64,000 bases of DNA from NCBI GenBank assembly GCA_013387205.1, contig WARV01000008.1, positions 136-64,135 of the forward strand. Reading direction: 5' to 3'. Under the pieces are notes generated by a model, which was not told the origin of the DNA, did no database searches, and was given only the letters and a program-made list of their open reading frames with translations. Position numbers and translations under genes: made by a program. The stretch's first letter is position 1. Every line of letters starts with the position of its first letter. The stretch comes from Patescibacteria group bacterium. GTDB taxonomy: Bacteria > Patescibacteriota > Doudnabacteria > UBA920. Positions 7,872 through 50,737 of the stretch are shown one piece after another.

Positions 7872-7874
7872 GGG

Positions 7875-7912
7875 TTACTACGAAAAATGACGGCCGTCAT
7901 TTTTCGTAGTAA
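7875..7912. terminator. 38-bp perfect palindrome hairpin after rfbB
   Basis: ttactacgaaaaatgacggccgtcatttttcgtagtaa immediately after the rfbB stop. Confidence 0.5.
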
Positions 7913-7920
7913 TAAAAACT

Positions 7921-18700: not shown

Positions 18701-19853
18701 TGACAACGGGAATATCTTGAATGTTGCCACTGTTTCAGCCAGCAACGCGGCTTCGCAAAACGCCAGTGCGAATGTTTATGTCTCAACCAGCGTAATCCCA
18801 CCGATTATCCCTCCGAGCAATTATTACTACTACAATAACACCAGCAATAATTGCGTCAATAATTCCTGCAATACAACTACAACTACAACCAATACGTACA
18901 ACAATACCTATTATTACTACTCCAATCAAACCACTCCGGTTCCTTCCGCTGAATTTAGGCAATTAGGAATCAGGAAATTGGTCAGGAATATCAATGGCGG
19001 CACTTTCCAGGAAAGCATTACTGCCAATAACGGCGATATTGTGGAATACGAAGTTGTCGTGACCAACATTGGCAACCAGGTTGTGAATAATGTTAAGCTG
19101 ACTGACAGCAGCAACAACGGCGGTTTGTCTTGGACCAATTCCACTTATGTGGATGGCAGCCAGGCAACTTGGAATGGCAACGCTTTGTATTTGGGAAGCT
19201 TGTTCACTGGACAGCAAAAGCGCGTAGTTTATCAGGCCAGGGTGAATGGCGCTTCGGGCGCGAGCATCCAGAATATCGCAGTCGCTTCGGGAGACAATAC
19301 CAACTCTGTGCAGGATAGCGCTTGGGTATTCATTAGCGGCGTGGCCGGCAGTAATGTCAATTTGACTTACAGCAAGCGCGCGTTCAATGACACTAAGAAT
19401 GTCGATGCGACTACAATACCGGCTAATAGGGAAGAATATATCACTTACACTTTGACTGTTTTTAATAACGGTAACGCTCCTGCCAACAACTTTGTCATTT
19501 CCGATGATTTGTCCCAGGTCCTGCCTTACGCGGATTTGGCTGACAACGGCGGCGGTACGATTTCCGGAAACGTTATCAGCTTCCCGGGGATTACGGTTCC
19601 GCAGGGCGGCAGCGTGCAAAGGAGTTTCAAGGTCAGGATTAAATACCATTTGGCCGAGAACTTGAATTACGTGATGACCAACACTTACGGAAATACCGTA
19701 ACTATAAACATCAACACCCCGCAGGTTAAGGGAGCGTTCATTGCCCCAAGGACCGGCGCAGATACTATGGCTTTGGCCTTCGGCGGATTACTCACATCAG
19801 CCTTTGCGTTGATTAAAAAGAGAAAGTATTTAATGACTTTGATCTTTACCTAA
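15735..19853 (+). CDS. giant (1372 aa) secreted surface protein with DUF11-type repeats, N/T/Y-rich low-complexity segment and sorting-signal-like C-terminus
   Basis: Signal peptide. Repeated motifs such as EYRIKVSAATNVVLQNVKVTDTSN, KYQIVVSNVGNADATNVFVNDSN, EYEVVVTNIGNQVVNNVKLTDSSN (DUF11 / conserved repeat domain). C-terminus FIAPRTGADTMALAFGGLLTSAFALIKKRKY (motif + hydrophobic stretch + basic tail). Confidence 0.85.
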   Translation: MNQMFSKISIKTAFLAAFAVLALLALAPRKIDITQAESCSNPPTHPAFNVYQIDFSGSGCTDYPTMMARVLRNGQEIQGYQSVYNSGANAQAGDELDVVVYVHNGAAENLDPEQTTARGIYLNTTVDGTFEPEHTISVTVTSQNAATVNGAFGIHTASNEALQVIPNSGAVYERGNPNAIQSGLNIGDNSFSLGDMHACYQYLRFVHFRVKVVAKQVQPTANISAQVGSQVNGQCLLNGSVTWSSENVTNPRVYVKDVNDNFEQLLASAPNGTSDTPWLKPNDSYIFTFRGDNIQDKTANVTTGNLSCAVPPAGKNTITAQAGNQIGAQCLRDGTVSWTNASNVSIVEVTVQDITTSSPVNSITGPAGFPNSSSDTPWLTPGDTFRYILYDTTNGQHTELARYDLNVPTLNCVVTPPVSYTLTTNKTDYCVGDIPQYTITSSPALAGKKILWSSFFNGQPTGEINTDYGFYLDANGFWSAYGSGWYSKDIGSWVKEANIDGVKKSVSFTVRNCAAPVPTLTCTPENQTTDIGTIVFFTANGGTSPYTFTAPEGVNSFPNGSSGFHTTYFSAGDKVVTVKSTDGQTAICNVHVKTPPSQTLVCSPSSQTVNVNQSALFSATGGKGSYTWIANGGSPASGAGGSFSTQYASSGSKTVTVASSDGQTANCYVQVSPPIEQNLVCTTLTPSVDINQTANFSATGGNGSYSWSAVEGYPSSGVGNSFSSKFATSGSKTAVVTSGSKTATCYVQVSQPVVQKGVLQISKEVRNVTSGGDFSHTAFANQNDIVEYRIKVSAATNVVLQNVKVTDTSNSGIAYVDGTLTQDGAVHAPGLTSGGIIISQVGQTPVVFTYRAKVLINSGSVINTASASADNAINTPYDQAVVTVTFIQPGQPSMTITKQVMNVTKNTGFSSSVSATKGDTVKYQIVVSNVGNADATNVFVNDSNPIGNITGLTVSRSGFGGTFGASGISLGTLAKGESVTITYSGTVNIDNGNILNVATVSASNAASQNASANVYVSTSVIPPIIPPSNYYYYNNTSNNCVNNSCNTTTTTTNTYNNTYYYYSNQTTPVPSAEFRQLGIRKLVRNINGGTFQESITANNGDIVEYEVVVTNIGNQVVNNVKLTDSSNNGGLSWTNSTYVDGSQATWNGNALYLGSLFTGQQKRVVYQARVNGASGASIQNIAVASGDNTNSVQDSAWVFISGVAGSNVNLTYSKRAFNDTKNVDATTIPANREEYITYTLTVFNNGNAPANNFVISDDLSQVLPYADLADNGGGTISGNVISFPGITVPQGGSVQRSFKVRIKYHLAENLNYVMTNTYGNTVTININTPQVKGAFIAPRTGADTMALAFGGLLTSAFALIKKRKYLMTLIFT

Positions 19854-20237: not shown

Positions 20238-20741
20238 ATGTATACAAAAGAAACAAATTTTGCATTCGTAGATAGCCAGAATCTAAACCTGGGGATTAAA
20301 AGCTTGGGGTGGGATTTAGATTTTAAAAAATTCAGAATATATTTACAAGAAAAATATCATGTAAAAGTGGCGTATCTATTTATCGGCTACATGCAGCAAA
20401 ACCAAGACTTGTATGCCCAGCTACAAAAGTATGGTTACGTGTTAATATTCAAACCCACCCTGCCTGACAAGGACGGTAAAATTAAAGGGAATGTAGATGC
20501 TGATTTGGTTTTGCAAGCAATGATAGATTTAAAAAATTACGACCAGGCGTTAATAGTTACTAGTGACGGAGATTTCTATTCGTTAGTTAAATATTTATAT
20601 GAACAGGAAAAATTAAAATTAGTAATAAGCCCTTATGTAAAGACCTGTTCCTCCTTGCTTAAGAAGTCCGCTAAAGAAAAGATTGTATTTATGGATAATC
20701 TGAAGGGAAAACTGGAATATAAAGGAAAAAGCACCGCTTAA
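20238..20741 (+). CDS. NYN (LabA-like, PIN-fold) domain protein
   Basis: FAFVDSQNLN ... GNVDADLVLQAMID ... IVTSDGDFYSLV, the acidic motif pattern of NYN/LabA nucleases. Confidence 0.75.
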   Translation: MYTKETNFAFVDSQNLNLGIKSLGWDLDFKKFRIYLQEKYHVKVAYLFIGYMQQNQDLYAQLQKYGYVLIFKPTLPDKDGKIKGNVDADLVLQAMIDLKNYDQALIVTSDGDFYSLVKYLYEQEKLKLVISPYVKTCSSLLKKSAKEKIVFMDNLKGKLEYKGKSTA

Positions 20742-20993: not shown

Positions 20994-22172
20994 ATGGACA
21001 ATAATTATCTCAATGATTTAATTAATGAAACGCAAAGCAGGGGAGGTGGGTTGCTTTTGAATTTTAACGAAAAGCCTGCAGTAGTAGTGCTGACAGTTGA
21101 AAAATATAACGAGTTGCTGCAAAAACCGGATGTGGTTTTTAAGCAGCAGATGGTTTTGGGAGACATGGCTGAACAGGTTTCTGAAAAAGGAAAAATTTTG
21201 GTGACCGGCGGGGCAGGGTATATTGGTTCACACCTTGTCAGGCAATTATTAGAGCACGGATACGAAGTAGTGATTTTGGATAACTTAAGCACCGGGAAAA
21301 AAGAGAATATTCCGGCAGGCGCGAGTTTTATTGAAGGAGATTTGAAAGATGTGAATTTGTTGCGCGATATTTTTGCCGCGCATCGCATTAGTGCGGTCGT
21401 CCACATGGCGGCCAGCATCGAGGTTGAAGAGTCTGTCAGGGAGCCGGAAAAATATTTTGAAAACAATGTGGGTAACACGGAAAAGCTGCTGGTCGCCATG
21501 AACGAGGCTGGCGTAAAAAAAATAATTTTTTCTTCCACCGCAGCAGTTTATGGGGAGCAGGAAAAAATGCCGATTACGGAAAATTCCCCGGCCAGGCCGA
21601 ATAATCCATACGGCTATACCAAACTTTTGGCGGAAAAAGCCATAAAGTATTACACGAAATACGCCGGGCTGAAAGCGATAATTTTCAGGTATTTCAATGC
21701 CTGTGGCTGTGATTTTGACGGGTCTATTATTCCAACACACGAATCGCATTTAATCCCAATAGTATTAGAAGTTGCCAAGGGCATAAGACCGCACCTGCAA
21801 GTGTATGGCGGCGATTATAAAACTTTTGACGGCACATGCATTAGGGACTACGTGCATGTCTTGGATATTGCCAAAGCGCACGTTGCTGCTTTGGAAAAAA
21901 TTGACGGAATGGATAATTTTAATATAATCAACATCGGCACAGGCCGCGGCAGCAGCGTTAAAGAAGTCATAAATGCGGCATCAGAAGTTTTAAATAAAAT
22001 TATTCCCATGGAAATCGGCGCGCGAAGGGCCGGTGATTCTGTAATCACGGTTGCGGATAATACAAAGCTAAAACAAATTCTCGGATACGAACTCAAGCAT
22101 AGTGACCTTGAAACCATTATTAAGACTTCCTGGAATCAGATTAGCAATAAAGTTTCAGCTGCCTTATCTTAA
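20994..22172 (+). CDS. galE: UDP-glucose 4-epimerase with ~65-aa N-terminal Phd/YefM-antitoxin-like extension
   Basis: GalE core KILVTGGAGYIGSHLV ... YGYTKLLAEK. N-terminus NFNEKPAVVVLTVEKYNELL resembles the Phd/YefM antitoxin fold motif. An internal Met (MAEQVSEKGKILVTGG) could give a standalone GalE. Confidence 0.8.
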   Translation: MDNNYLNDLINETQSRGGGLLLNFNEKPAVVVLTVEKYNELLQKPDVVFKQQMVLGDMAEQVSEKGKILVTGGAGYIGSHLVRQLLEHGYEVVILDNLSTGKKENIPAGASFIEGDLKDVNLLRDIFAAHRISAVVHMAASIEVEESVREPEKYFENNVGNTEKLLVAMNEAGVKKIIFSSTAAVYGEQEKMPITENSPARPNNPYGYTKLLAEKAIKYYTKYAGLKAIIFRYFNACGCDFDGSIIPTHESHLIPIVLEVAKGIRPHLQVYGGDYKTFDGTCIRDYVHVLDIAKAHVAALEKIDGMDNFNIINIGTGRGSSVKEVINAASEVLNKIIPMEIGARRAGDSVITVADNTKLKQILGYELKHSDLETIIKTSWNQISNKVSAALS

Positions 22173-22200
22173 GAAACCAAAATATAAAAGGAGGATGTTG

Positions 22201-22395
22201 ATGGGTAACACCAAAGAAGAAAGATGTAAGATTTTGTATATGGAAAACGGCAAGCCTCAGGAGTGCGGTGGAAAAATTGAGCCGGCAGATTTCAGGGTGC
22301 CGGCTAATCCCCATAACCCGCTTCATGGTGGCGTTTTGGGGAAGCCTTTTCTATACAGGTTTTGTACCAAATGCCATGTTTTAACGAGCGGCTAA
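22201..22395 (+). CDS. small Cys-rich (zinc-ribbon-like) hypothetical protein
   Basis: MGNTKEERCKILYMENGKPQECGG ... FCTKCHV, aaaggagga SD upstream. Track ORF 22102-22395 probably over-extended. Confidence 0.5.
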   Translation: MGNTKEERCKILYMENGKPQECGGKIEPADFRVPANPHNPLHGGVLGKPFLYRFCTKCHVLTSG

Positions 22396-22414
22396 AGATA
22401 TGCCGTAATAAATA

Positions 22415-22457
22415 CCGCCGCTTTCTCACTGTGAATGTGAGAAAGCGGCGTTTTTTT
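22415..22457. terminator. bidirectional intrinsic terminator
   Basis: ccgccgctttctcactgtgaatgtgagaaagcggcgttttttt between convergent genes. Confidence 0.7.
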
Positions 22458-22467
22458 GGTTCCCGAA

Positions 22468-23070
22468 TCAGTTGCTATATAGCAGTTGATGGCCTCTCGC
22501 AATCGTTTGCAGGTTTTCGGCTTCGCGGCACGCGCCGCCAAAGTTGTGGTGGGTTTTCACCTCCTGGATGACTTTGGTCGCTTTCCGGTAAATACTGGCC
22601 ATCAAGCAGAACCTCGTTGCCATGTCGCAGAAAGTGAGAACGTTCCTTCCAAAGCAGCAGTTGGAATAAATATCATAAATCATCCAACTGTACTTGTCGT
22701 TTCCGCCGTACGTAACCTTGCCGTCGGAAATTTTAATCTCACAAGCACTGTTGGTGATTCCACTGCGCACAGTGATGGTCACTTGCGAAATCATTTCACT
22801 TATAGGCAAGATATCGATCTTGTCATTGACCAAAGGCCTGTTCCAGCTTGTTAGCTGATCGAACGTTCCATAAATCTGGGATGGGCTTATAACCATCTCA
22901 GTTTCCAACTCTCTGGTCGGCAGGAGTTTTTTACCTAGGATTATGCCCTTTTGCTGGTTTGGGACAATGCGGAAGCGCAACTCACGGAACTGATCGAGTG
23001 TTTCCTGGTAAAACCGTTCCTCGAATTTCGGAGGAATTATCGGGTGCGTCAAAAGGCTCAGGTTAACCAT
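22468..23070 (-). CDS. hypothetical Cys-rich protein, compositionally foreign (high GC, SD present)
   Basis: Likely start ATG at 23070 (aagaggaaaggcaatATG on minus). Track ORF extends to 23325. GC visibly higher than surroundings, with both strands open. No family assigned. Confidence 0.55.
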   Translation of the reverse strand: MVNLSLLTHPIIPPKFEERFYQETLDQFRELRFRIVPNQQKGIILGKKLLPTRELETEMVISPSQIYGTFDQLTSWNRPLVNDKIDILPISEMISQVTITVRSGITNSACEIKISDGKVTYGGNDKYSWMIYDIYSNCCFGRNVLTFCDMATRFCLMASIYRKATKVIQEVKTHHNFGGACREAENLQTIARGHQLLYSN

Positions 23071-23295
23071 ATTGCCTTTCCTCTTTCTTGTTTTGCCGCT
23101 GTTAAGCGGAACGACAGAAATTTTTAGGACCTGTCGCACATCCCGTTTGAGTAGCAATATAATACCATTTATGTCTTTGTTAATCAATCCTGTGTTACAA
23201 AACAGCAAATTTGTCGTTATATTATATATAATGCGAAATAGGATCAAGTTGTCATTACGAGGAGCCCGCAGGGCGACGTGGTAATCTTTGTACCA

Positions 23296-23491
23296 TGATA
23301 AGATTGCTTCGGTCGGATGCCCCAAAGGGGCCTCTTTGAGGCACTCCCTCGCAATGACATTGCTTGTTTGCTGTCATTGCGAACCCTGATATTTTATAGC
23401 TTTTAAATATCATGGTGAAGCAATCTGTTTAAGAGATTCTTCGCTACGCTCAGAATGACGCCTGAGGAGTAGTGGATTCGCTCGCAATGAC
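23296..23491. repeat. family C elements: one 3' half-copy (23296-23358) plus one full copy (23374-23491)
   Basis: ctcgcaatgac at 23348-23358 and 23481-23491, gtcattgcga at 23374. Internal gaagcaatctgtt..aagagattcttcg hairpin as in the 51322 copy. Confidence 0.7.
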
Positions 23492-23658
23492 GATAAAAAT
23501 TCGCATTAAAACATCAATTATGATATAATAATGGAAACTAATTTACCCCGCACACCAATTTTCACCAGGTTTTGATATATATCAAGACTAATTATAATCG
23601 GTGAGTATTCAATACGCACGATATTAAATGGTAATTGGTGTGGGGTCAAGACAAAAAT

Positions 23659-24393
23659 ATGAAAAAATTATCCGTGGTTATTCCCGCCTATAACGAAGAG
23701 CAACGCATTGCCAAAACTTTGCTTGCCGTAGGCGAATATTTATCGAAACAAAATTACGATTACGAGATTTTGGTGGTTAATGATGGCTCAAAAGACAACA
23801 CCGCAGGAGTTGTCAGGGCGCAGATGGATAAAATAAAAAACCTGCATTTAATTGACCATCATGAAAATCATGGCAAAGGCTGGGTGACAAAAGACGGCAT
23901 GCTGCATGCAAACGGCGATGTACGCGTATTTTTGGATGCGGATAATTCCACCAAAATTGATGAAATTGGCAAAATGCTGCCATTTTTCGACCAGGGTTTT
24001 GATATTGTGGTCGGCTCCAGGCGCATAGAAGGTTCGCATTTAGATGTTAAGCAGAATTTTCTCAGGGATACTTTGGGCGGAATTTTCAGGCTGATTGTGC
24101 ATACCGTGGTACCAGTCGGCGTCACTGATACCCAATGCGGCTTTAAGGCTTTTTCCGCAAAATCAACCGAAGCCATTTTTCCCAAACAGACAATTTTCCG
24201 CTGGGCTTTTGACGTAGAGATTCTGGCTTTAGCCAGAAAGCAGGGTTTTAAAATAAAAGAAGCACCGGTTACTTGGGTTAACGACGGAGCCAGCCATGTT
24301 AAGCTCTCCGGAATGATTAAAATGCTTTTGGAAATAATACAGATCCGATTTAATTTGTGGTGCGGAAAATACAATAGTAATGACAAAAATTAA
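23659..24393 (+). CDS. GT2-family polyprenyl-phosphate glycosyltransferase (DPM-synthase/GtrB-like)
   Basis: KLSVVIPAYNEEQRIAKTL ... ILVVNDGSKDNT ... FLDADNS. Stop lies within a family D element. Confidence 0.85.
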   Translation: MKKLSVVIPAYNEEQRIAKTLLAVGEYLSKQNYDYEILVVNDGSKDNTAGVVRAQMDKIKNLHLIDHHENHGKGWVTKDGMLHANGDVRVFLDADNSTKIDEIGKMLPFFDQGFDIVVGSRRIEGSHLDVKQNFLRDTLGGIFRLIVHTVVPVGVTDTQCGFKAFSAKSTEAIFPKQTIFRWAFDVEILALARKQGFKIKEAPVTWVNDGASHVKLSGMIKMLLEIIQIRFNLWCGKYNSNDKN

Positions 24394-24470
24394 AAAAATG
24401 ACAAGATTGACATAAATAATCTGCAGTTAATATTTTGTCATTTCCGTCGTTTTTGTCATTTTTGTCAATA
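24380..24470. repeat. family D (TGACA-rich) palindromic element
   Basis: aatgacaaaaattaaaaaaatgacaagattgacataaataat ... ttttgtcatttccgtcgtttttgtcatttttgtcaat, near-identical to 36145-36233. Confidence 0.6.
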
Positions 24471-24478
24471 AAAATATA

Positions 24479-26344
24479 GTGGAAAAAGAAATAAGGAAAA
24501 AATCTAGACACAAATATCAGGCATTGCTGTCGATAGTATCGATTGGTTTTTTTGTCTTGTCTGTTTTTCCTTTAGCTGCATCGGCAAGTTCTCCGTCACC
24601 GAAAGATTATATAATCAAGTTGTCCTCAAATGCCAATCCAAAAGTGTTGGATTACGTGGCAGACAAAACACAGCGGCTTTTTGAGTTTTCGTATGATGAT
24701 AATTTTAAGAATATATACGCGCTAAAATCGCCTTTTGCCAAAAGCGAAATTGAAAAAGAATTAAATGGCCAGTTTGAATATCTGGAAGAAGAAAAGCCGT
24801 TGAACGTTGCGGATGTTTATGTCAACGATCCCGGATTTACATCCCGCGCAGAAGACACGGACAAGCAATGGGGACTTGCCAAAACCGGATTCAACCAGGT
24901 TTGGGAAAAAACAACGGGGTCGTATAACAACATTGTTGCGGTAATTGATACCGGCATAGACGAAACTCACGAAGATTTGCAGGCAATAAATTTTGTTGAA
25001 GGTTTTGATTTTGTCAGCCGCCAGAAAATAACCGGACGGGTCAATTCCGACAATAACGGGCATGGCACGCTGGTTGCCGGAGTTTTGGGCGCCACTGCCA
25101 ATAACGGGCTCGGCATAACCGGGACCAACTGGATGACAAGCTTGATGCCTCTTAAAGCTTTAGATGACCGCGGCAAGGGCGAATCGGCTTTGATTTCCGA
25201 AGCGATTGTCTGGGCAGTAGATAACGGCGCAAAATTCATAAATTTAAGCGTGGGCGGGGTCGGATTCGGGCACGATACGACATTGGCCAACGCAATTTCT
25301 TACGCGTTCGAAAAAGGCGCGGTAATCGTTTCCGCAGCCGGCAATGATACTTCGTCGCAAGGCATTAGCCTCGACGACGAGCCGGTTTACCCGATTTGCG
25401 ACGACAACAACCAGAATATGGTAATTGGCGTGACAGCTACTGACAGCAATGATTTAAAACCGGAATTCGCGAACTACGGGAAAAATTGCATAGACGTTGC
25501 CGCACCAGGAAAAAGGATCCTTTCTACCATCAATTACGACCCTTTAACCAAAAAGCCGGCGCCGAATTCATACGCATACGCTTCCGGAACTTCTTTGGCC
25601 GTGCCTTTCGTGGTCGGCCAGGCTGCTTTGATAAAATCTTTGCATCCGGAATTTACCAACGTGCAAATTCGGGACAAAATCCTCTCCACGGCCGACCCGA
25701 TAGATAATTTGAACATAAGCCAATGCAAGGGGGTGTCCTGTAAAGGAATGCTTGGCGCGGGCCGGATTAACGTCAAAAAAAGTTTGGAAAGCCAGACTGT
25801 GGCAATTGCGTTAAACGAGGGAGATTTAGTTAAAATGGATAGTAATAATGCCGTGTATCAGATTTCCGGCGGGCAAAAAAGGCTGGTATCGACTTTTGTC
25901 CTAAACCAGCAGTTTTCCAATGCCTATATTAAGCCTGTGACGCCAGACGCGCTGGCTAACATGCCGGATGGCCCTTATGTCACGCCAAAAGACGGCACGC
26001 TGGTGAAAATCGAGAATAACCCGACTGTTTTTTATATGTCCAAAGGACAAAAGCTTCCTATTACTTACAACGTATTCAAGCAAAGGCAGTTGAGTTTTTC
26101 GAATATTAACACGGTCAGCTTTTCAGAATTGAATTCATGGGTCACTGGATCTTTTTTGCCGCCTTCAGAAGGCACGCTGGTGAAAACTGCCAGGAATAAA
26201 ACAGTGTATTGGGTAGTGGGGGATGCGCTGCATGCGATTAATTATGCTTTTTACGTGCAAAAAGGTTTAAATATCTTTCCGGTATTGGTCTTGCCGGATA
26301 AAGACATAGCCGGATTTCCAAAAGGAGAAACGTATTTAAGATAA
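24479..26344 (+). CDS. subtilisin-like serine protease (S8) with N-terminal propeptide and C-terminal ~58-aa repeats
   Basis: Catalytic triad contexts VIDTGID, HGTLVAGV, GTSLAVP. C-terminal repeats (GTLVKIENNPTVFYMSKGQKLPI...) shared with the next gene. Confidence 0.9.
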   Translation: MEKEIRKKSRHKYQALLSIVSIGFFVLSVFPLAASASSPSPKDYIIKLSSNANPKVLDYVADKTQRLFEFSYDDNFKNIYALKSPFAKSEIEKELNGQFEYLEEEKPLNVADVYVNDPGFTSRAEDTDKQWGLAKTGFNQVWEKTTGSYNNIVAVIDTGIDETHEDLQAINFVEGFDFVSRQKITGRVNSDNNGHGTLVAGVLGATANNGLGITGTNWMTSLMPLKALDDRGKGESALISEAIVWAVDNGAKFINLSVGGVGFGHDTTLANAISYAFEKGAVIVSAAGNDTSSQGISLDDEPVYPICDDNNQNMVIGVTATDSNDLKPEFANYGKNCIDVAAPGKRILSTINYDPLTKKPAPNSYAYASGTSLAVPFVVGQAALIKSLHPEFTNVQIRDKILSTADPIDNLNISQCKGVSCKGMLGAGRINVKKSLESQTVAIALNEGDLVKMDSNNAVYQISGGQKRLVSTFVLNQQFSNAYIKPVTPDALANMPDGPYVTPKDGTLVKIENNPTVFYMSKGQKLPITYNVFKQRQLSFSNINTVSFSELNSWVTGSFLPPSEGTLVKTARNKTVYWVVGDALHAINYAFYVQKGLNIFPVLVLPDKDIAGFPKGETYLR

Positions 26345-26490
26345 ATTAACCTAATTATTCTAATTGCTCTAATTGACCCCGTGTCAGGCACGGGGCAGGC
26401 TCTAAATAAATCACAATACCCAAATCCAAAATTAAAAATTAGGTATTAGGATTTGATTAGACTAATTAGGTCAATTAGGTTAATTAGAAA
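26345..26490. repeat. family A palindromic element (contains ccccgtgtcaggcacgggg hairpin)
   Basis: aattaacctaattattctaattgctctaattgacc ... ttaggtcaattaggttaattagaaat. 3' module abuts the start codon of the next gene exactly as at 3005-3039. Confidence 0.7.
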
Positions 26491-26500
26491 TTTGCAGTCT

Positions 26501-28354
26501 ATGAAAACACAAAAATTATTTTTAGCGGCATTAATAACTATTTTACTCGCGCAGCCTATACTGTCTTTGGCTCAAGGCATTGAAACTGGGTTTGACCCGA
26601 ATAAGATTATTGACGACAAGATATTTTCCGATACCCAGACTTTCGGCGGGCCGGAAGGCGTACAGAAATTTTTGGAAGTTAAGGGCTCGATTCTTGCCAA
26701 TACCAGTCCGGATTTCATCGCCAAATTAAAAGAGCCGGACATAACCATGCTTAAGCAAGGACTGGAAGATCCAAGGCCTAATTTGGGGCGGATGAGGACG
26801 GCAGCCGAGCTTATTTGGGACGCGTCCATACAAAGCGGCCTTAACCCGCAGGTAATCATTGTGACTTTAAACAAAGAGCAGAGCCTTATTACCGGCCATC
26901 AGGATTCTTCTCCGGACAAAATGCAGAAAGCTTTGGATAGGGCCATGGGTTTTGATTGCCCGGACGCGACCGGGTGCGGTAATTTGTTTCCCGGGTTTTA
27001 TTACCAATTATTCGGCAATTTCGACTCAGACGGCAACCGCTATTTGGGCGCTGCCAAATCTTTAATGAAATCTTTCAATACTGACGGCGGCCGCGGCCCG
27101 CAAATTGACGGGCATATATCCAGAGTCGGGGATGTTGTTACTTTAGATAACACCATGGGCGGGTTTGACGGCGTGTCACCCAGCCAGACAATTACAATAA
27201 TGAACCGGGCTACCGCAGCTTTATACCGTTTTACTCCGCACGTGTTTAACGGCAATTATAATTTTTGGAGATTTTTTAATTCCTGGTTCAGGTACCCGAA
27301 CGGCACGCTTTTGTCTTTGGCAGGGGATATAAAAACTTATATCATCCAAAACGGCACCAAGCAGCTGGTTCCGGATTTTGTGGCCAAGGCGCGCAATTTG
27401 AACTTGGCATCGAAAATCACCATCTCGCCTAACGAATACGACAGCTATCCGACAGATAAAGTGTTCGGGCCGAAAGACGACACTATTGTAAAAACTACAG
27501 ATAACAGTAAGACTTACGTGTTTATTAATAATATAAAGCACCCGGCATCAAGTTTTGTAATTTCGCAGAGGGGACTTAATCCAACCCAGGCTTTGGAAGT
27601 TTCAAGCAGCGAAGCTTCGTTGTTCGATACTGGAAATGTTTTGCCGCCAAAAGACGGGACAATTATCCGAGGAGTAACTAATCCGGCAATATATTTGGTT
27701 GATGGCGGCAGGATAAAACTTTTCAGCGAGTATACTTTCAAGCAGAGAAAGATTGCAGCCAAACAGGTTACGCCAGTGCCCGATGATGAAATTACTACGT
27801 ATGAAAAACAGGGTTTTGTGCCGCCGCTCGACAACACTTTAATCAAGTCAACGGATAAAGGGACTGTATATTTGGTTGATAAAGGCTTAAAGCGGCCGGT
27901 GACCGCGGAGTTATTCAAAAACCGCGGGTTTAAAGTTAAAGATGTAGTCAGCTTGAGTCCGGACGAAGTTACGTCTTTGACGGTCGGTGCTTACGCCACG
28001 CCTAAAGATAAAACATTCTTTAAAGTTGCCGAGACCGGCCAGCTGTATATGTTTAAGGAAGGAAGCAAACATCCGATTTCCAGTTTTGTAGCTAAGCAGC
28101 GCGGTATAACTCCAGATTACACTTTTGGCCAGAGCATGGCTTACGAATGGTATGATGGTATTTCAATTCCGCCGAAAGATAACACTTTGGTTAAAGGCGC
28201 TAAAGACGGTACAGTATATTTAGTCAGTAAAGGACAGTTAAGACCGCTCACAGCCAAAGCGTTCAAGGCGAGGAAGTATAACATAAAAAACATCAAGACT
28301 TTGCCCCAAGACGAAGTTGACGCGTATGCGAAAGGGGATGTGGTAAATAAGTAA
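26501..28354 (+). CDS. secreted protein with six tandem ~58-aa repeats (PPKDGTxVK...TVYLVxxGxKRPI motif)
   Basis: Signal peptide MKTQKLFLAALITILLAQPILSLAQG. Repeats PPKDGTIIRGVTNPAIYLVDGGRIKLF / PPLDNTLIKSTDKGTVYLVDKGLKRPV / PPKDNTLVKGAKDGTVYLVSKGQLRPL etc. Track ORF start 26453 lies inside the repeat element. Confidence 0.75.
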   Translation: MKTQKLFLAALITILLAQPILSLAQGIETGFDPNKIIDDKIFSDTQTFGGPEGVQKFLEVKGSILANTSPDFIAKLKEPDITMLKQGLEDPRPNLGRMRTAAELIWDASIQSGLNPQVIIVTLNKEQSLITGHQDSSPDKMQKALDRAMGFDCPDATGCGNLFPGFYYQLFGNFDSDGNRYLGAAKSLMKSFNTDGGRGPQIDGHISRVGDVVTLDNTMGGFDGVSPSQTITIMNRATAALYRFTPHVFNGNYNFWRFFNSWFRYPNGTLLSLAGDIKTYIIQNGTKQLVPDFVAKARNLNLASKITISPNEYDSYPTDKVFGPKDDTIVKTTDNSKTYVFINNIKHPASSFVISQRGLNPTQALEVSSSEASLFDTGNVLPPKDGTIIRGVTNPAIYLVDGGRIKLFSEYTFKQRKIAAKQVTPVPDDEITTYEKQGFVPPLDNTLIKSTDKGTVYLVDKGLKRPVTAELFKNRGFKVKDVVSLSPDEVTSLTVGAYATPKDKTFFKVAETGQLYMFKEGSKHPISSFVAKQRGITPDYTFGQSMAYEWYDGISIPPKDNTLVKGAKDGTVYLVSKGQLRPLTAKAFKARKYNIKNIKTLPQDEVDAYAKGDVVNK

Positions 28355-28434
28355 CAAGTGGTATATAGTAAGTAGCAAGCAAGAGCGGGCGTTTCATCGC
28401 CCGCTCTTTATCTTATCTGTCTAATTTGTCCTGT

Positions 28435-28478
28435 ACCACCTTGATGGTCACCATCCGGATGGTGACCATCAAGGTGGT
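28435..28478. repeat. 44-bp perfect palindrome
   Basis: accaccttgatggtcaccatccggatggtgaccatcaaggtggt, preceded by hairpin agagcgggcgtttcatcgcccgctct (28382-28407) and followed by ccgccagccggcgg. Confidence 0.6.
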
Positions 28479-28560
28479 ATCTTGCTCCGCCAGCCGGCGG
28501 ATGATGCAAGGTGTCCTCTTGTTTTAAGGTATTGGATAATTCTGATATAATTAAACAGCA

Positions 28561-30015
28561 ATGAGCAAGGCTGTATCAAAAAACATATTTTGGCTGTCGT
28601 TGTCCAGGGTTTTTGCCATGGTGCTGCTGTTTTTGGCGTATCGAAATCTTTTTAGATACTTGGGACCGTATAATTCCGGACAATACCAGTTTATTCTTTC
28701 GTACGTGCTGATGTTTTCCACTGTGGTGGATTTTGGCATCCAGCAGTTCATTATAAAAAAGATGAGCGAAAAGCCGGAAGAGACGGAGAATTATTTCCGG
28801 CAATTTTTAGCCTTTGAGTCCGCAGTTTCATTTTTTCTCTACGCGCTATTAATATCTATTGCATATTTCCGGCATTTCGACCCTCAGGTCTTACAAGGCA
28901 TTGCCTTGGCTGGCCTTGGTATGGTCGCTAATGCTTTAACTTATCCGTTTTTGTCTGTAATGAGCGCGAGACAAGACTTGCGCAAAGTTGCCTTTATAAA
29001 TTTTTTAAACTCCCTGGTAAATGTCAGTGTGATTGCCCTGGCAATTATTTTCCATAAAGGGATTGTATTCTTGGCCAGCATCCAGCTGATTTTTGGTTTA
29101 CTGGATTTGGCTTTATACAGGGTTTTTGTTTTAAAGCATTTGCCTGCGCCTAAAGTATTATCTTCCTTAAAGCATATTCATTTTGAGCTAATTTGGAGCA
29201 TTATCAATAATGCCTGGCCGTTTGTTTTGCTGGTGGGTTTTAGCGCGATTTACAACCGCATAGACGTGGTCATTTTGACTTTTTTAAAAGGCTACCAGGA
29301 AACCGGATATTACACGGCCGCTTATAAGATTTACGATTTGCTTGGTTTTTTCCCGTCCGTAGTTTCGTTTACATTGTTCCCGTTTTTTACTGGCTTGATG
29401 GCGAAAAATGCCATACTCGAAATAAAAGACAGTTTGGAAAAATATACAAGATTAATGTTGATGTTCGCGCTTCCAATGGCCGTAGGCGGCACTATTTTGG
29501 CACAGAAATTAATTATTTTGGTAACCGCGTCGCGGGAATTTTTGCCCGGCGCGCAAGCTTTGGCGATTTTAATTTGGGCGCCAGCTCTGCTGTTTATTTA
29601 TATTCCGGTGAACTCTTTGGTGATATCGCAGTTAACCAGGAAAGCGTTAATTATTACCGGAACTAATGTGGTTGTTAATATTGTGGGAAATTTGCTGTTA
29701 ATTCCGCGTTTTGGCATTCAGGCTGCGGCGGTTATGACTGTTTTAAGCGAAAGCTTGCAGGGAATTTTTTATTTTTATTTTGTCAGGAAAAATATTACAG
29801 ATTTCAAATTTTGGGGCTCGGTTTTTAAACCCGCGTTTGCGGCTTTGGTGATGGGCTTGGTATTGTGGCCGATAAGGGATATGAGTTTGTTGATTACTTT
29901 GGCGGCAGGCGCAGCGGTTTATATGGCAATGCTAACGATCACCAGGTTCATAGGGAAAGATGATATTGTGGTGATAAAAGGGTTATTCAGAAGAGAGAGC
30001 GGGGAATTGACCTAA
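28561..30015 (+). CDS. Wzx-like oligosaccharide flippase / polysaccharide biosynthesis protein (MOP superfamily)
   Basis: 484 aa, about 12-14 TM helices, N-terminal pattern typical of Polysacc_synt family. Confidence 0.75.
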   Translation: MSKAVSKNIFWLSLSRVFAMVLLFLAYRNLFRYLGPYNSGQYQFILSYVLMFSTVVDFGIQQFIIKKMSEKPEETENYFRQFLAFESAVSFFLYALLISIAYFRHFDPQVLQGIALAGLGMVANALTYPFLSVMSARQDLRKVAFINFLNSLVNVSVIALAIIFHKGIVFLASIQLIFGLLDLALYRVFVLKHLPAPKVLSSLKHIHFELIWSIINNAWPFVLLVGFSAIYNRIDVVILTFLKGYQETGYYTAAYKIYDLLGFFPSVVSFTLFPFFTGLMAKNAILEIKDSLEKYTRLMLMFALPMAVGGTILAQKLIILVTASREFLPGAQALAILIWAPALLFIYIPVNSLVISQLTRKALIITGTNVVVNIVGNLLLIPRFGIQAAAVMTVLSESLQGIFYFYFVRKNITDFKFWGSVFKPAFAALVMGLVLWPIRDMSLLITLAAGAAVYMAMLTITRFIGKDDIVVIKGLFRRESGELT

Positions 30016-30177
30016 TTGCTCTAATTACTAACTCCCTCTGTCTCCCTCTTTAGTAAAGAGGGAGAACCTGCCAAGAAAGGTTAGCTGATTGATAACAATC
30101 AGGTCTTCCTTAGTTTGTTCCTTCTCTTTGCTAAAGAGAAGGACAGGATGAGTTCTGGGTAGGTTAATTAGAAATTT
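30005..30177. repeat. composite family A/B element, inverted copy of 2815-3035
   Basis: rc of 30031-30152 aligns with 2851-2952 (actcatcctgtccttctctttagcaaagagaagga ... gagacagagggagt). A termini at 30005-30026 and 30161-30177. Confidence 0.7.
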
Positions 30178-30208
30178 TCCAAAAAGTGTGTTATAATTTA
30201 ATTAATAT

Positions 30209-30415
30209 ATGAAATCTAAGGAAACAAAAAACAATCAAATATTAGACAGCTTTTGGCCTATGATTTTTGTTGCGGTTGCGGCGGTGATATCGGTAGGGAT
30301 AATTATGTGGTCTGCTAATATGTCAAAGCTTCAGGAAGATTTGACATCTTTGAGCGTGGCCAAGCATAGCACCCAGACACAGGCAAAGGTTTTGGGCGAG
30401 GCTGTGAAGCGGTAG
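30209..30415 (+). CDS. small hypothetical membrane protein
   Basis: 68-aa ORF with one TM, no SD, TATAAT-like box directly upstream. Confidence 0.35.
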   Translation: MKSKETKNNQILDSFWPMIFVAVAAVISVGIIMWSANMSKLQEDLTSLSVAKHSTQTQAKVLGEAVKR

Positions 30416-30667
30416 TCTTCTTGCTTATAAAATATCGATTATGTGGTTTTTTAACGCGGCCAAATGGCCGTTTTCTTTACGCTTTTTTTAGGTTATAATT
30501 AAGGAGTATTATCAAAAAGTAAATGACCCTGTAGAGCTTCTTTGCAAACCTCCTGTTGTAAGCGGTAAATAATAGGTCGGCCTATAGGGATATCAACATT
30601 TTTTTAATTGCAATAGCTTTCGTTGTCGGTAAAATACAGCGAACAATTGCAAAGAAATTCTACAGGG

Positions 30668-31768
30668 ATGAAGATTGGAATTGAAGCAGAAAGGGCTAAT
30701 CTTGGCCAGAAGACCGGGGTTGAGCATTATGCCAAGCAGCTCATTCTGCACCTAGCCGAAATAGACCAAAAAAACCAATATATTTTATATTTGCGAACCA
30801 AACCGGAAAGCTGGTTTTTGAATTTGCCAAAAAACTTTTCTATAAAAGTAATGCCGTTTCCGATTTTCTGGACGCAGGTCAGGCTGTCTTTGGAAATGGT
30901 TTTTAATCCGGTTGATGTTTTATTTATTCCAGCTTCCGCGCTGCCTTTGTTACACCCGAAAAACAGCGTTGTGACAATCCATGATTTAGCCTGGCTGTTT
31001 TATCCGGATACTTTTACCTGGTTTAACCGCAGCTTCTTAAAATGGTCGACAAAATTTGCAACCAGGAATGCGAGAAAAATAATTGCGGTTTCTGAGGCGA
31101 CTAAGAATGATTTGGTTAAATATTATCGCGTAGATGATAAAAAGGTTGGTGTAGTGCATCATGGGTATGAGAATAACAATTACGGATTACGGATTACGGA
31201 TTACGGATTAAAATCGCCACTACCGGAAAAATTTATTTTATTTTTATCGACCTTACAACCAAGGAAGAATTTGGAAGGGCTGATTGACGCTTTTAAGGAA
31301 TTAAAACAGGAAAATCCGGAATTGCCGCACAGGCTGGTGGTGGTCGGCAGACTCGGGTGGAAATTTGAAAGTATTTTAAAGAAGATTGATGAAAATAAGG
31401 ATTTGGTTGCTTATTTAAACCATGTATCAGACGAAGACCGTTTGGCGATTATGCGCAAAGCCGATTTATTAGTTTTGCCAAGTTTCTATGAAGGTTTCGG
31501 CATGCAGATTTTGGAAGCGTTTGACGCAAAAGTGCCGGTTGCCGCATCAAAAGTTTCCAGCATGCCGGAAGTGGCGGGGGAAGCTGCTGTTTATTTTGAT
31601 CCTCATGATACAAAAGAGATAAAAAACGCCATTAAGTGTGTTTTGTTGGACAAGTCCATGTCAGACTGCTTAAAAGACTTGGGGCAAAAGAGGCTTGAAA
31701 GTTTCAGCTGGAATAAGTGTGCAAAAGAAACCCTGGAAGTAATGACAAAATTGACGGAAATGACATAA
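30668..31768 (+). CDS. GT4-family glycosyltransferase
   Basis: Start MKIGIEAERANL. C-terminal LPSFYEGFGMQILEAFDAKVPV (GT4 E-x7-E region). In-frame ttacgga x4 heptad repeat at 31189-31216 (LRITDY). 3' end inside a family D element. Confidence 0.85.
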   Translation: MKIGIEAERANLGQKTGVEHYAKQLILHLAEIDQKNQYILYLRTKPESWFLNLPKNFSIKVMPFPIFWTQVRLSLEMVFNPVDVLFIPASALPLLHPKNSVVTIHDLAWLFYPDTFTWFNRSFLKWSTKFATRNARKIIAVSEATKNDLVKYYRVDDKKVGVVHHGYENNNYGLRITDYGLKSPLPEKFILFLSTLQPRKNLEGLIDAFKELKQENPELPHRLVVVGRLGWKFESILKKIDENKDLVAYLNHVSDEDRLAIMRKADLLVLPSFYEGFGMQILEAFDAKVPVAASKVSSMPEVAGEAAVYFDPHDTKEIKNAIKCVLLDKSMSDCLKDLGQKRLESFSWNKCAKETLEVMTKLTEMT

Positions 31769-31895
31769 ATTAACCTTCATACAGGCGTCATTCCGAGTGC
31801 AGCCGAGGAATCTCCTTTTGTAGTTTAAGAGATCCTTCGCTCGGATGCACTCGCTCAGGATGACGCCGGAGCGTCATTTTTGTCATTTATTTAAT
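31741..31895. repeat. family D element with a family C-like element nested inside
   Basis: aatgacaaaattgacggaaatgacataaatt ... [gtcattccgagtgcagccgagg...gctcaggatgacgccggagcgtca] ... tttttgtcatttatttaa. Confidence 0.55.
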
Positions 31896-31906
31896 TTTTT
31901 TAATTT

Positions 31907-33520
31907 TTGCTCATTGTATTTATGTTTTTAACTGACGAAAATAAAATATTTTCCTGGCCAAAAGCCGCCATGTCATTATTATACGTATGGCAGGCGCTTA
32001 CCATATTGCTTGTGATTTTTGGAATACTGCAGCCTTGGGCTGTCTGGATTGTCCTGATTTTAGGGCTTTTATATATCGCAATTTTCCCGGAATTCTATTC
32101 TTTGATGTTCCTGATTGTTTCTATCCCATTTTATCTGGCAATACCGAACCAGCGTTTTGACACGCTTTCAATTTGGAGAATTTGGTTTGCATTTATTTTT
32201 CTTGTTTGGTTTTTCAGGTTTACTATCAGGTTTTACCGAAAAGAGAAAAAGATTAACCTAAGAAAAATATGGTCAGAAATTTACTTTATGCCTTGGGATA
32301 AGGCATTGGGCTTGTTTTTCTTTATTGCGGTTATTTTGGTCCCGTTTTCTAAATTTGCCGTACCAAGCCTTAAGCAGCTAATGTTTATTTTGAATGCTTA
32401 TTTTATATATGTAGTTTTGGTAAATACCATAAAAACAAAAGAGCAGATAATCAGCGCGGTCAGGTTCGCAATAATTTCTTTAGGCACCATTGTGCTTGTA
32501 GGTTACATCCAGCTCATTTCGACATTTTTCACCAGCTTTGATACGTTTTGGGTTTACTGGGCCAGCTTCATTTCAAAGTTATATTACGGCCAAAACCTGG
32601 CAAGCGTTTTGTTATATTCCAACTCCTGGTTTTCTTATAATGGCGCCAGGGAATTGCGCATGTTCAGCATAATGCCGGATTCGCATTCTTTCGCGGTCAT
32701 CTCGGTATTTTTAATTTCATTCCTTTTGTCCTTAACTTATTTTTACGCGAAAAGGGACAGGTATATGCTTTGGACCGTTGTCAGGACAACCGGTCTTGCG
32801 GTAATCCTTTCCGGCACGCGCGGCGTGTGGGCCGGCATGGCCGCTCCTTTTTTGGCGACGATTTTCATGATAACAAAAAATTATTTCAGGCCTATCGCGG
32901 AAAAGATTTTTTGGTCTTTGGCTATGATCCTTTTGTTTTTTGCTATGGCCCCGGCATTTAACAAAGCATTTGATTTTATGCGCGTTAGGAGCTTTAAGGA
33001 AAACTTTTTGGACCGGGCCAAGACAATGTATGACGTCAGCGAGGATTCCAATCAGGCCAGAATAGAAATTTGGAAGCACAGTATCAGATACGCGGTCAGC
33101 CATCCTGTGGGCGTGGGTTTTGGCAATTTCTTAGTCTCAATATCAAGCGATACAAACCAAAAGACATTTTCGGAACTGAGCCAGGTTAATAACAAGCGAT
33201 ACAACCTTCCCCAAAAATACGTTACAGCGCATAATTTATATCTAAACGTTTTAGTCGAATTGGGGGTTTTTGGCTTAGCGGCATTCTTGTGGTTCTGGTG
33301 GAAATATTTTAAAACAGTTTGGGATTTTATGGTGAGATTCCGCGACCAGGATAATTTTTATATGTTTTTCGTAATAGTTTCCGCGCTGACTTTTTTGTGG
33401 CTTTTGGCGTATGGCCTGTTTGACGTAACACTATTTAATGACAAAGTCTTAATGTATAGTTTCATCAGTTTGGGGCTTTCTGGGATTATCATAACTAGGT
33501 ACCGCGATTTGAAAAAATGA
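31907..33520 (+). CDS. O-antigen ligase/polymerase-like (Wzy_C family) membrane protein
   Basis: About 12 TM helices with periplasmic-loop region TGLAVILSGTRGVWAGMAAPFLATIF typical of O-antigen ligase family. Confidence 0.6.
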   Translation: MLIVFMFLTDENKIFSWPKAAMSLLYVWQALTILLVIFGILQPWAVWIVLILGLLYIAIFPEFYSLMFLIVSIPFYLAIPNQRFDTLSIWRIWFAFIFLVWFFRFTIRFYRKEKKINLRKIWSEIYFMPWDKALGLFFFIAVILVPFSKFAVPSLKQLMFILNAYFIYVVLVNTIKTKEQIISAVRFAIISLGTIVLVGYIQLISTFFTSFDTFWVYWASFISKLYYGQNLASVLLYSNSWFSYNGARELRMFSIMPDSHSFAVISVFLISFLLSLTYFYAKRDRYMLWTVVRTTGLAVILSGTRGVWAGMAAPFLATIFMITKNYFRPIAEKIFWSLAMILLFFAMAPAFNKAFDFMRVRSFKENFLDRAKTMYDVSEDSNQARIEIWKHSIRYAVSHPVGVGFGNFLVSISSDTNQKTFSELSQVNNKRYNLPQKYVTAHNLYLNVLVELGVFGLAAFLWFWWKYFKTVWDFMVRFRDQDNFYMFFVIVSALTFLWLLAYGLFDVTLFNDKVLMYSFISLGLSGIIITRYRDLKK

Positions 33521-33530
33521 CATCCTCAAA

Positions 33531-33580
33531 TGTCATTCCGGGAGCTACAAGCGTAGCGAGGGCTACCCGGAATCTACGCT
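33531..33580. repeat. family C-like short element
   Basis: gtcattccgggagctacaagcgtagcgagggctacccggaatctacgc. Confidence 0.4.
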
Positions 33581-33647
33581 TTGATTATTATCCAGATATG
33601 GATCCCGGATTTAATCTGGGGTGGAACAAAAAAACACTAAAATTTTT

Positions 33648-34763
33648 ATGCCAAAAGTAACAGTTGTCCAAGTAATCTATAACAACCGCCGATTCATTGA
33701 ACCGGTTTTTAACGCTGTATTTAACCAGACTTTTAAGGATATTGAAGTAGTGGCAGTTATTGCAGGCAACGAAGATGGTTCAAAAGAATTGCTCGCAGAA
33801 AAATTTCCCCAGGTTAAAATAATCGATCCCGGTTACAATATCGGTTTTGCAAAAGGGCATAACCTGGTTTTTGAAAAGTATGATCCGGAATTCTTCCAGC
33901 TGGTCAATCCCGACTTGGTAATGGAGCCGAATTATATTGAAGAGATGCTAAAAGCGTTTGATGATGAAAAAGTAGGCGCGGTTACAGGGAAGTTGTTGAA
34001 ATGTAATTTTGTAGGGGCGGATCCCATCCGCCCAGATGAAGGGAAGATAATATCTTCCACTACAAAAGTGCAAAAAACCAATATTATCGATTCTACCGGC
34101 GTTGTTATTTATAAATCCGGCGCAGCGCGTGACCGCGGGCAGCACGAGACTGACAACGGCCAATACGACGATTTAGCCGTTGTTCAGGCAGTATCCGCTG
34201 CCGGAGCCATGTATAGAAGAGCGGCTTTGGAATCAACTAAGTTATCAAAAATTTCTACCACCCCGGCTGCTAACGCAGCCACCCCTCCTGTAAAGGAGGA
34301 GTACTCCACATTAGTGGAGGGAGGTGGTATTAAGTATGAATACTTCGACGAGGATTTTCATTCTTACTGGGAAGACGTGGATTTGGCCTGGAGGATGAGC
34401 AATGGCGGGTGGAAATGCATGTTTCAACCAGCTGCGATTGCACATCATGGCAGAGGGTCGGGTTCGCATCCTGGCGGATACAAAAAAGTTTTTTCCTACA
34501 TTAAATTCCACAGGCAAATTCCGCCCCGCATCCGCCAGCTTAACTACCAAAACCACATTTTCATGTATTTGAAAAATTCCTCGTGGTTTTATCCGCAATT
34601 TTTTATCCGCGAATTTTTCATGGCTTGTTATATGCTGTTGTTTGAAATTAGCACCTTCAAAGTCGTTCCCAATATGTTTAAGCTGTTTCCCAAAATGTGG
34701 CAGAAGCGGAAAAATATCCTAGTTTGTAAAAATCGCGGCCGTGATTTTTACAAACAGAAGTAA
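33648..34763 (+). CDS. GT2-family glycosyltransferase
   Basis: MPKVTVVQVIYNNRRFIEPVFNAV ... YFDEDFHSYWEDVDLAWRM (DxD / ED motif region). About 25-aa low-complexity insertion encoded by three consecutive hairpins at 34258-34330. Confidence 0.8.
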   Translation: MPKVTVVQVIYNNRRFIEPVFNAVFNQTFKDIEVVAVIAGNEDGSKELLAEKFPQVKIIDPGYNIGFAKGHNLVFEKYDPEFFQLVNPDLVMEPNYIEEMLKAFDDEKVGAVTGKLLKCNFVGADPIRPDEGKIISSTTKVQKTNIIDSTGVVIYKSGAARDRGQHETDNGQYDDLAVVQAVSAAGAMYRRAALESTKLSKISTTPAANAATPPVKEEYSTLVEGGGIKYEYFDEDFHSYWEDVDLAWRMSNGGWKCMFQPAAIAHHGRGSGSHPGGYKKVFSYIKFHRQIPPRIRQLNYQNHIFMYLKNSSWFYPQFFIREFFMACYMLLFEISTFKVVPNMFKLFPKMWQKRKNILVCKNRGRDFYKQK

Positions 34764-48786: not shown

Positions 48787-49120
48787 AGTGCTTTAAGCAA
48801 ACTCATAAGCCGAATTCTGTTTCTAAATAATCATCTGTCTAGCCCTTAAATTGCTCTAAGGGTCAAGCAGCCTACCTAACTTGGCTTTGCACTCAAGTAA
48901 GAGTTTAGCCGTTTCACCTTGGCATTGCTACCAAGACGATCCAATTGCTTGGATCTCCTAGCCTTTCGGCATCGGACGTTTCTGTTCGCATCTCGCACCT
49001 TGCGGTGGACGGGAATTACCCGCTACCCTTTTTGATAACTCTATAGAGGCTATCAAACAAGTGTTCGGACTTTCCTACCCAATTTTTACATTGGATTGAT
49101 TATTCGATTTGCTTAAAGCT
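48787..49120 (-). ncRNA. rnpB: RNase P RNA (bacterial type)
   Basis: Minus-strand sequence contains CR-I GGUAGGAAAGUCCGAACAC (rc of about 49061-49079), GGUGCGAGAUGCGAACAG region, and CR-IV/V AACAGAAUUCGGCUUAUGAG (rc of about 48800-48820). P1 helix gcuuuaagcaaa (49119-49108) pairs with uuugcuuaaagc near the 3' end. Terminator follows at 48757-48786. Promoter TTGACA-17-TAGAAT on minus at 49154-49126. Confidence 0.75.
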
Positions 49121-49125
49121 TCAAT

Positions 49126-49154
49126 ATTCTATCAGATATTATCAAAATTGTCAA
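49126..49154 (-). promoter_or_regulatory. sigma70-type promoter of rnpB (TTGACA-17-TAGAAT on minus strand)
   Basis: rc of 49149-49154 is TTGACA, rc of 49126-49131 is TAGAAT, 17-nt spacer. Predicted TSS coincides with the P1 5' strand. Confidence 0.5.
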
Positions 49155-49198
49155 GTATAAGCTGGAAAAAAGCAGTTAAAATTGATATAATATTTTAT

Positions 49199-50635: not shown

Positions 50636-50642
50636 TATATAA

Positions 50643-50733: not shown

Positions 50734-50737
50734 ATTA

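Follow-up and report, generated by a model that had tools for sequence, protein, structure and literature searches.

The 64,000-nucleotide stretch of contig WARV01000008.1 analysed here (the window) comes from a patescibacterium of the Candidatus Doudnabacteria and contains two adjacent forward-strand genes whose products end in tandem copies of the same repeat of about 59 amino acids (aa). The first, pA (24479-26344, 621 aa), is a subtilase of peptidase family S8 with three copies, and the second, pB (26501-28354, 617 aa counted from the ATG), carries six copies behind an N-terminal domain of its own. As set out below, the repeat is very probably related to the repeat domains of EccB, a core component that is essential for type VII secretion in mycobacteria, and the arrays most likely serve as a cell-wall-binding anchor.

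The pA and pB proteins and their repeat arrays

The repeats of pA are located at 25808-25981 (A1, aa 444-501), 25982-26158 (A2, aa 502-560) and 26159-26344 (A3, aa 561-621, stop codon included), and those of pB at 27293-27466 (B1, aa 265-322), 27467-27643 (B2, aa 323-381), 27644-27820 (B3, aa 382-440), 27821-27997 (B4, aa 441-499), 27998-28168 (B5, aa 500-556) and 28169-28354 (B6, aa 557-617, stop codon included). Individual copies measure 57-61 aa and follow one another head-to-tail without interruption. A seed hidden Markov model (HMM) was made from the six obvious copies, and the three copies left out of it, A1, B1 and B5, served as a recovery test; all three were recovered at levels well beyond those expected by chance (independent E-values, i-E, of 1.5e-8, 4e-8 and 5e-11, respectively), and a later HMM made from all nine copies matched A1 at 7e-23. 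The original prediction, based on the letters and their translations, of an S8 protease ending in three repeats next to a protein with six was thereby confirmed for both open reading frames. A six-frame HMM scan of the window found no further copy (next best match E = 0.11). In a BLASTP comparison of the two proteins the C-terminus of pA aligned with the C-terminal half of pB in several registers (E-values 8e-20 to 8e-10).

Pairwise identity among the copies is 16-47%, and repetition at the DNA level is confined to the motif PPKDGT-LVK, which recurs at a spacing of 177 nt. Because DNA similarity is limited to this motif the arrays are old and not recently duplicated, and both a recent duplication and an assembly artefact were rejected on the same ground. 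Hundreds of full-length relatives with 55-72% identity were found for pA and likewise for pB, and the named ones belong to Patescibacteria, mostly Candidatus Doudnabacteria. Each repeat position is conserved among orthologues at 60-70% identity. The number of repeats is three in all 120 listed orthologues of pA, and among the listed orthologues of pB it is six in 109 and eight in 11. The arrays have isoelectric points (pI) of 9.2 in pA and 9.4 in pB, with B6 as the most basic copy (pI 9.9), and the catalytic part of pA and the N-terminal part of pB have a pI of 4.8 and 5.4, respectively. The repeats had been described as rich in both basic and aromatic residues; their basic nature is borne out, while the aromatic content of the arrays is unremarkable.

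The first 36 residues of pA (24479-24586) form a putative signal peptide, recognised by eye in the translation, with a basic N-region, a hydrophobic core and a cleavage motif A-S-A in front of S. The catalytic domain is located at 24932-25705 (aa 152-409; Pfam Peptidase_S8, 2.3e-48). Membership of peptidase family S8 is evident from the match to PF00082 (165.4 bits against a cut-off of 21.8) and from the presence of the Asp, His and Ser motifs (DTG, HGT and SGTS). The closest solved relatives of the domain in the PDB are AK.1 protease, thermitase and subtilisins. The best NCBIfam match of pA is T7SS_mycosin (TIGR03921), which at 178.3 bits remains below the equivalog cut-off of 278.75. An assignment of pA as a mycosin (MycP) was rejected on the grounds of this sub-threshold score, of nearest solved relatives that belong to the thermitase type and of the absence of mycosins from the top 60. 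As far as sequence comparison indicates, the mycosin likeness of pA is generic S8 similarity.

For pB the start annotated at NCBI is a TTG at 26453, which gives a protein of 633 aa; orthologues are about 617 aa long, and a signal peptide is found directly at the ATG. This predicted signal peptide (26501-26572, aa 1-24, with S-L-A in front of Q) was read from the translation, and the AlphaFold2 (AF2) model has a single N-terminal helix at aa 2-22. The N-terminal domain (26576-27292, aa 26-264) represents a conserved unannotated family, which occurs in diverged forms, a long one of ~240 aa and a short one of ~190 aa. It is confidently folded and mostly helical in the AF2 model, with the motif A-T-A..LY.YTP(H)..GN.NFW and, where a helix ends, an invariant K125-E126-Q127. 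The domain gave no match in Pfam, NCBIfam, PHROG or the PDB sequences, and profiles made from 108 orthologues or from 15 diverse members also found nothing in the PDB. Repeats of the same type come after this domain in every example examined, all of which were drawn from matches to the repeat profile. It is tempting to speculate, from the position of Glu126 in an invariant KEQ at a helix end, that the domain is a lysozyme- or transglycosylase-like wall enzyme. The pairing with a subtilase is not found everywhere in the pB family. In L001, which encodes an eight-repeat variant of pB, no S8 gene adjoins the pB homologue; here a gene for a phosphodiester glycosidase (NAGPA; 7193-8419) overlaps its stop codon, which gives the pB family another partner enzyme.

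Fold of the repeat and its relation to EccB

Structures were predicted with AF2 for the whole of pB, from 108 orthologues, and for repeat B6 alone, from 148 stacked repeats. The pB model has a mean predicted local distance difference test score (pLDDT) of 88.6, with values above 90 in the repeats (e.g., B2, B3 and B4), and a predicted template modelling score (pTM) of 0.58, and every copy adopts the topology β-β-β-α-β-α. The same topology was obtained for the single repeat, at a pLDDT of 82 (overall, pLDDT spans 82-95 in the models). When the full pB model was compared with the PDB by Foldseek, all 11 matches at E <= 0.001 were to EccB1, EccB3 and EccB5 (E-values 2e-8 to 3e-5, probability 0.99-1.0). 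About 400 columns were aligned in these matches and the global TM-score was low, as would be expected if the same beads are strung differently in pB and in EccB. For the single repeat the top 11 PDB matches were also all EccB chains, with TM-scores of 0.64-0.70, a root-mean-square deviation of 2.6-3.7 Å, 13-23% identity and probabilities of 0.90-1.0. The next match was to the wall-binding domain of the endolysin LysIME-EF1 (PDB 6IST), with a probability of 0.33 and a TM-score of 0.45.

Sequence profiles point in the same direction. A profile of 148 repeats, searched against 177,635 PDB sequences, placed EccB1 first (E = 0.005, positions 7-58 of 59); the aligned segment is the N-terminus of the periplasmic construct, i.e., repeat R1. 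In the same search EccB3 was matched at E-values of 0.18-0.63, and a profile made from the nine window repeats alone gave only spurious matches to Sas10. The Pfam model for EccB (PF05108) scores above its cut-off of 27 on close carriers of the repeat, i.e., proteins matched by the repeat profile at E <= 1e-35, e.g., the CHAP protein P0316 (61.4 bits), P0241 (39.3 bits) and P0327 (30.7 bits). Within the EccB profile these matches cover positions 72-126 and 164-249, equivalent to R1 and R2. The likeness to EccB repeats at the level of sequence profiles is weak and partly transitive, as PF05108 matches the carriers and not pA or pB. In Pfam and NCBIfam searches with pA, pB and the single repeats no named domain was found for the repeat, only noise (YtfJ, EML propeller), and the Pfam models for SH3b, CWB2, LysM, SLH, choline-binding repeats and PG_binding gave no match (at E <= 1 for the proteins and E <= 10 for single repeats). 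The Pfam family DUF7454 (PF24253) has a profile of 59 positions, the same length as the repeat. It reached 27.1 bits, against a threshold of 27, on the pB orthologue P0031 in a match that runs across a repeat junction, and 23.6 bits on P0033; it is annotated on four of the 120 listed orthologues and gave no match to pA, pB or the nine single repeats at E <= 10.

EccB1 contains four repeat domains of 51-57 aa, each made of two helices and a sheet of four strands, and these domains flank a core domain (PMC4769845). The features of an EccB-type repeat, i.e., 50-60 aa, a four-stranded β-sheet with two α-helices and best superposition on the solved EccB repeats, are found in the repeats of pA and pB. 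Judged from the profiles and the models together, it is very probable that the ~59-aa repeat belongs, as a divergent member, to the family of EccB-type repeat domains, and we regard this homology as well supported. The original prediction had left the repeat unassigned; the structure search, including that with a single modelled repeat as had been proposed, the repeat profile and the PF05108 matches on close carriers now give it a family. It had also been held that a match to a well-characterised domain, such as SH3b or CWB2, would make the repeat unremarkable. The family found is neither of these two, and it has a solved fold but not an established function in EccB.

The repeats R1-R4 of EccB (PF05108; PDB 3X3M, 4KK7, 5CYU, 6SGY, 7NP7) share with the repeats described here a size of 51-59 aa, the topology of four strands and two helices and the motif …VY-hydrophobic…G-x-K/L-H/R-P-V…L…NP…V…EL…P-G. 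In both cases one protein has several copies, which lie outside the cytoplasm across a membrane of the monoderm type. On the other hand, the N-terminus of EccB consists of a cytoplasmic segment followed by a single transmembrane helix, whereas pA and pB have putative cleavable signal peptides with sites of the A-x-A type. A central six-stranded core domain is located between the repeats of EccB, while the arrays of pA and pB are contiguous with nothing inserted. EccB has exactly four repeats in a quasi-two-fold arrangement, in contrast to the three, six or eight copies in the free-standing arrays of the pA and pB families, and it is encoded in an ESX context, in contrast to the glycosyltransferase neighbours of pA and pB. 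No genes for ESX or other type VII secretion system (T7SS) components (EccC, EccD, MycP, WXG100) were found beside pA and pB, either here, where the Pfam scan covered part of the window, or in a second Doudnabacteria genome (L003). An assignment of pA and pB as EccB proteins was rejected, as they are without transmembrane helix, core domain and ESX context.

Carriers in other genomes and the surroundings of pA and pB

The repeat profile matched 4,123 of 1.84 billion cluster representatives at E <= 1e-3, 1,450 at E <= 1e-10 and 119 at E <= 1e-30. In the 150 best matches (P0241-P0390) the number of copies per carrier ranges from 2 to 16 at a spacing of 57-66 aa. The modal number is four (58/150), as in EccB; in these carriers the copies are contiguous and the EccB core domain is absent. 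In 112 of the 150 no more than 25 aa separate the end of the array from the C-terminus, and a hydrophobic N-terminal segment is present in 72 of the 97 that appear complete. Sixty of these carriers, chosen on length and completeness and not on content, were scanned for Pfam domains. SpoIID was found in 15, Amidase_2 in 12, Peptidase_S8 in 11, T7SS_ESX1_EccB in five, Peptidase_M23 in four, Glucosaminidase in two, and CHAP and CAP in one each. Larger carriers combine Amidase_2, SpoIID and PA14 with seven repeats. Carriers with a name include SpoIID/LytB proteins of Actinomycetota, a Parcubacteria amidase and hypothetical proteins of Portnoybacteria and Wirthbacteria.

In a comparison with predicted viral structures the confident matches were all to small, uncharacterised proteins of actinophages (Rhodococcus phage Weasels2, Streptomyces phage LukeCage). 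Among the weaker matches were M23, CHAP, amidase and lysozyme proteins of phages, and the repeat also matches one PHROG, whose function is unknown. The Pfam model for EccB already matches some carriers that are not part of a T7SS. A literature search with the terms 'EccB-like' and 'DUF7454' gave no account of a wide occurrence outside T7SS as arrays on wall hydrolases or subtilases. The fold family itself is known and solved, and the wide occurrence of arrays on wall hydrolases and subtilases outside T7SS is, as far as this literature search goes, the new part.

The locus of pA and pB is an envelope-glycan (envelope-biogenesis) cluster. The genes that surround the pair (20994-34763) encode an epimerase, a family 2 glycosyltransferase (GT2), a Polysacc_synt/MurJ-like flippase, a family 1 glycosyltransferase (GT1), a Wzy_C protein and a further GT2. 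In L003 the genes for the epimerase, GT2, S8 protease, pB, flippase, GT1 and Wzy_C are found in the same order as in the window, i.e., synteny includes the neighbours of the S8-pB pair. A second envelope-biogenesis cluster (49109-59785) encodes Bac_transf, three GT1 proteins, MurG, a patatin-like lipase, a Mur ligase and MurB, and SecA is encoded at 60621-63425. Because MurG, Mur ligase and MurB are all encoded in the same window, the organism makes peptidoglycan.

Some further features were observed in the window. About 1.4 kb (22173-23634) separates the epimerase gene from that of GT2, and the gap between the same two genes in L003 is only ~180 nt. The sole long open reading frame in this gap (22468-23325, reverse strand, 285 aa, TTG start) gave no match in Pfam, and the gap may represent either inserted DNA or a non-coding element. 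A protein of 1,372 aa with DUF11/DUF7507 repeats, probably a large surface protein, is encoded at 15735-19853, and its counterpart in L003 is likewise found upstream of the cluster. Directly upstream of the glycan cluster is a gene for a NYN-domain protein (20238-20741; PF01936, 2.2e-14). A bacterial class A RNase P RNA is located on the reverse strand at 48790-49115 (Rfam RF00010, 108 bits); it was the only Rfam match in the window, and ARAGORN found no tRNA genes across the 64 kb.

Possible functions of the arrays

Basic arrays of several copies at the end of exported enzymes that act on peptidoglycan are the usual signature of a non-covalent wall-binding module among monoderm bacteria and the phages that infect them, as in LysM, SH3b, CWB2 and endolysins. 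LysM, SH3b, CWB2, choline-binding repeats and SLH are like the arrays of pA and pB in that, in monoderm bacteria, secreted hydrolases or proteases end in several basic copies, but they have another fold and give no sequence match. A related small β/α fold, of weak likeness, is found in PlyCB of the streptococcal phage C1 (PDB 4F87; outside the top 50 Foldseek matches) and in the C-terminal domain of LysIME-EF1. In these lysins multivalency comes from oligomers of separate chains, whereas pA and pB have tandem repeats in one chain. Since the carriers are dominated by peptidoglycan hydrolases and the arrays are basic, mostly C-terminal and found on exported proteins, the arrays are most likely a cell-wall-binding anchor, and we put the probability of this explanation, which best accounts for the observations as a whole, at roughly 0.6. 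Both pA and pB would be exported by the Sec system. The basic arrays would then attach, by non-covalent contacts, to the sacculus of peptidoglycan or to a glycopolymer linked to the wall, conceivably one made by the surrounding gene cluster, and the presence of three, six or eight copies would provide avidity. The acidic catalytic parts, i.e., the thermitase-like S8 protease and the N-terminal domain of pB, would thereby be held at the cell wall. The original prediction had suggested a cell-surface or cell-wall anchor, and this appears to be supported in part, by association with hydrolase partners, by the basic C-terminal arrays and by the weak structural matches to phage lysins.

Several points weigh against such an anchor. 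The direct link to EccB by sequence is weak (E = 0.005) and the repeats of pA and pB reach no Pfam threshold, that of PF05108 included. The list of carriers, consisting of the 150 best matches, is biased towards relatives of the query, and about one fifth of the scanned carriers are proteases and not wall hydrolases. For EccB1 peptidoglycan binding was stated only as a suggestion, without experimental support, and the idea, from 2016, was drawn from a weak likeness in structure to PlyCB (PMC4769845). The role demonstrated for EccB repeats is in protein-protein contacts, as R1 and R4 mediate dimerisation of EccB5 and contact MycP5 (PMC8131196). It is conceivable from this, though rather unlikely, that the repeats are assembly modules as in EccB and that pairing of their helices joins pA with pB, or forms homo-oligomers, to give a surface protease complex. 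Such pairing has precedents, as the EccB of ESX-5 dimerises mainly via R1 and R4 and its contact is with a subtilisin-like protease, MycP5 (PMC8131196), and R1/R4 and R2/R3 of EccB1 pack via hydrophobic helices (PMC4769845). The adjacent, co-oriented genes for pA and pB, their synteny in L003, the S8 subtilases among the carriers (11/60) and the modal count of four copies (58/150), which is the EccB number, would also fit. However, many unrelated wall hydrolases bear the same repeat in single-gene contexts, the eight-repeat pB variant is found without an S8 neighbour, and pA has an odd number of repeats. Moreover, the catalytic domain of pA is thermitase-like and not mycosin-like (178 bits against 278.75), and the pTM of 0.58 gives no confident packing between repeats.

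The wide variation in copy number (2-16), the head-to-tail spacing of 57-66 aa and the low global pTM despite high local confidence in the AF2 model, as expected for beads on a string, would suit arrays that act as passive spacers or stalks, which project the catalytic domains through the wall or an S-layer and have no specific ligand. This is improbable, as the repeat positions are conserved at 60-70% identity across orthologues and the arrays are consistently basic. In addition, 112 of 150 arrays are terminal and not between an anchor and a catalytic domain, and neither pA nor pB has any other anchoring element. Patescibacteria are often episymbionts, and an equally improbable suggestion is that the repeats bind the wall of another cell, with pA and pB as attack or attachment factors aimed at the peptidoglycan of a host bacterium. 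The affiliation of the organism with the Candidatus Doudnabacteria, the occurrence of named carriers in Patescibacteria and Actinomycetota, and the related fold, present in small proteins of actinophages and, with weak likeness, in lysins by which phages attack foreign walls, are consistent with a foreign target. Nevertheless, the genes are located within the organism's own envelope-glycan and Mur neighbourhood, many carriers are SpoIID/LytB proteins of Actinomycetota with a presumed housekeeping role, and nothing in the sequence separates self from host targeting. Targeting of a host wall is a variant of the binding model and cannot be told apart by sequence from an anchor to the cell's own wall.

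If the repeats were assembly modules instead, their placement in the EccB-type family would amount to a routine domain assignment. As a wall-binding anchor they would have a wider bearing on type VII secretion. Relatives of the EccB repeats are common outside T7SS, with 4,123 cluster representatives, and the partners SpoIID, amidase, M23, CHAP and glucosaminidase provide independent, architecture-based support for a wall-binding role of the repeats in EccB. One may tentatively suppose, although this is doubtful, that the periplasmic domain of EccB was assembled from an older, widespread wall-binding repeat of monoderm bacteria, and that the arrays on subtilases and hydrolases in Patescibacteria and Actinomycetota represent the ancestral use. 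If this is true, the idea from 2016 of EccB as an anchor of ESX systems on peptidoglycan can be tested directly, and the pairing of subtilase and repeat, which are fused here and separate as MycP and EccB in T7SS, would be an old functional partnership and not a coincidence. The free-standing arrays offer simple, soluble material for such tests, with no need for a membrane protein. For the Patescibacteria the arrays suggest a likely mechanism of surface retention for a conserved gene pair in an envelope-biogenesis locus, which encodes a protease and an enzyme of unknown type, and they draw attention to the unannotated, catalytic-looking domain of pB.

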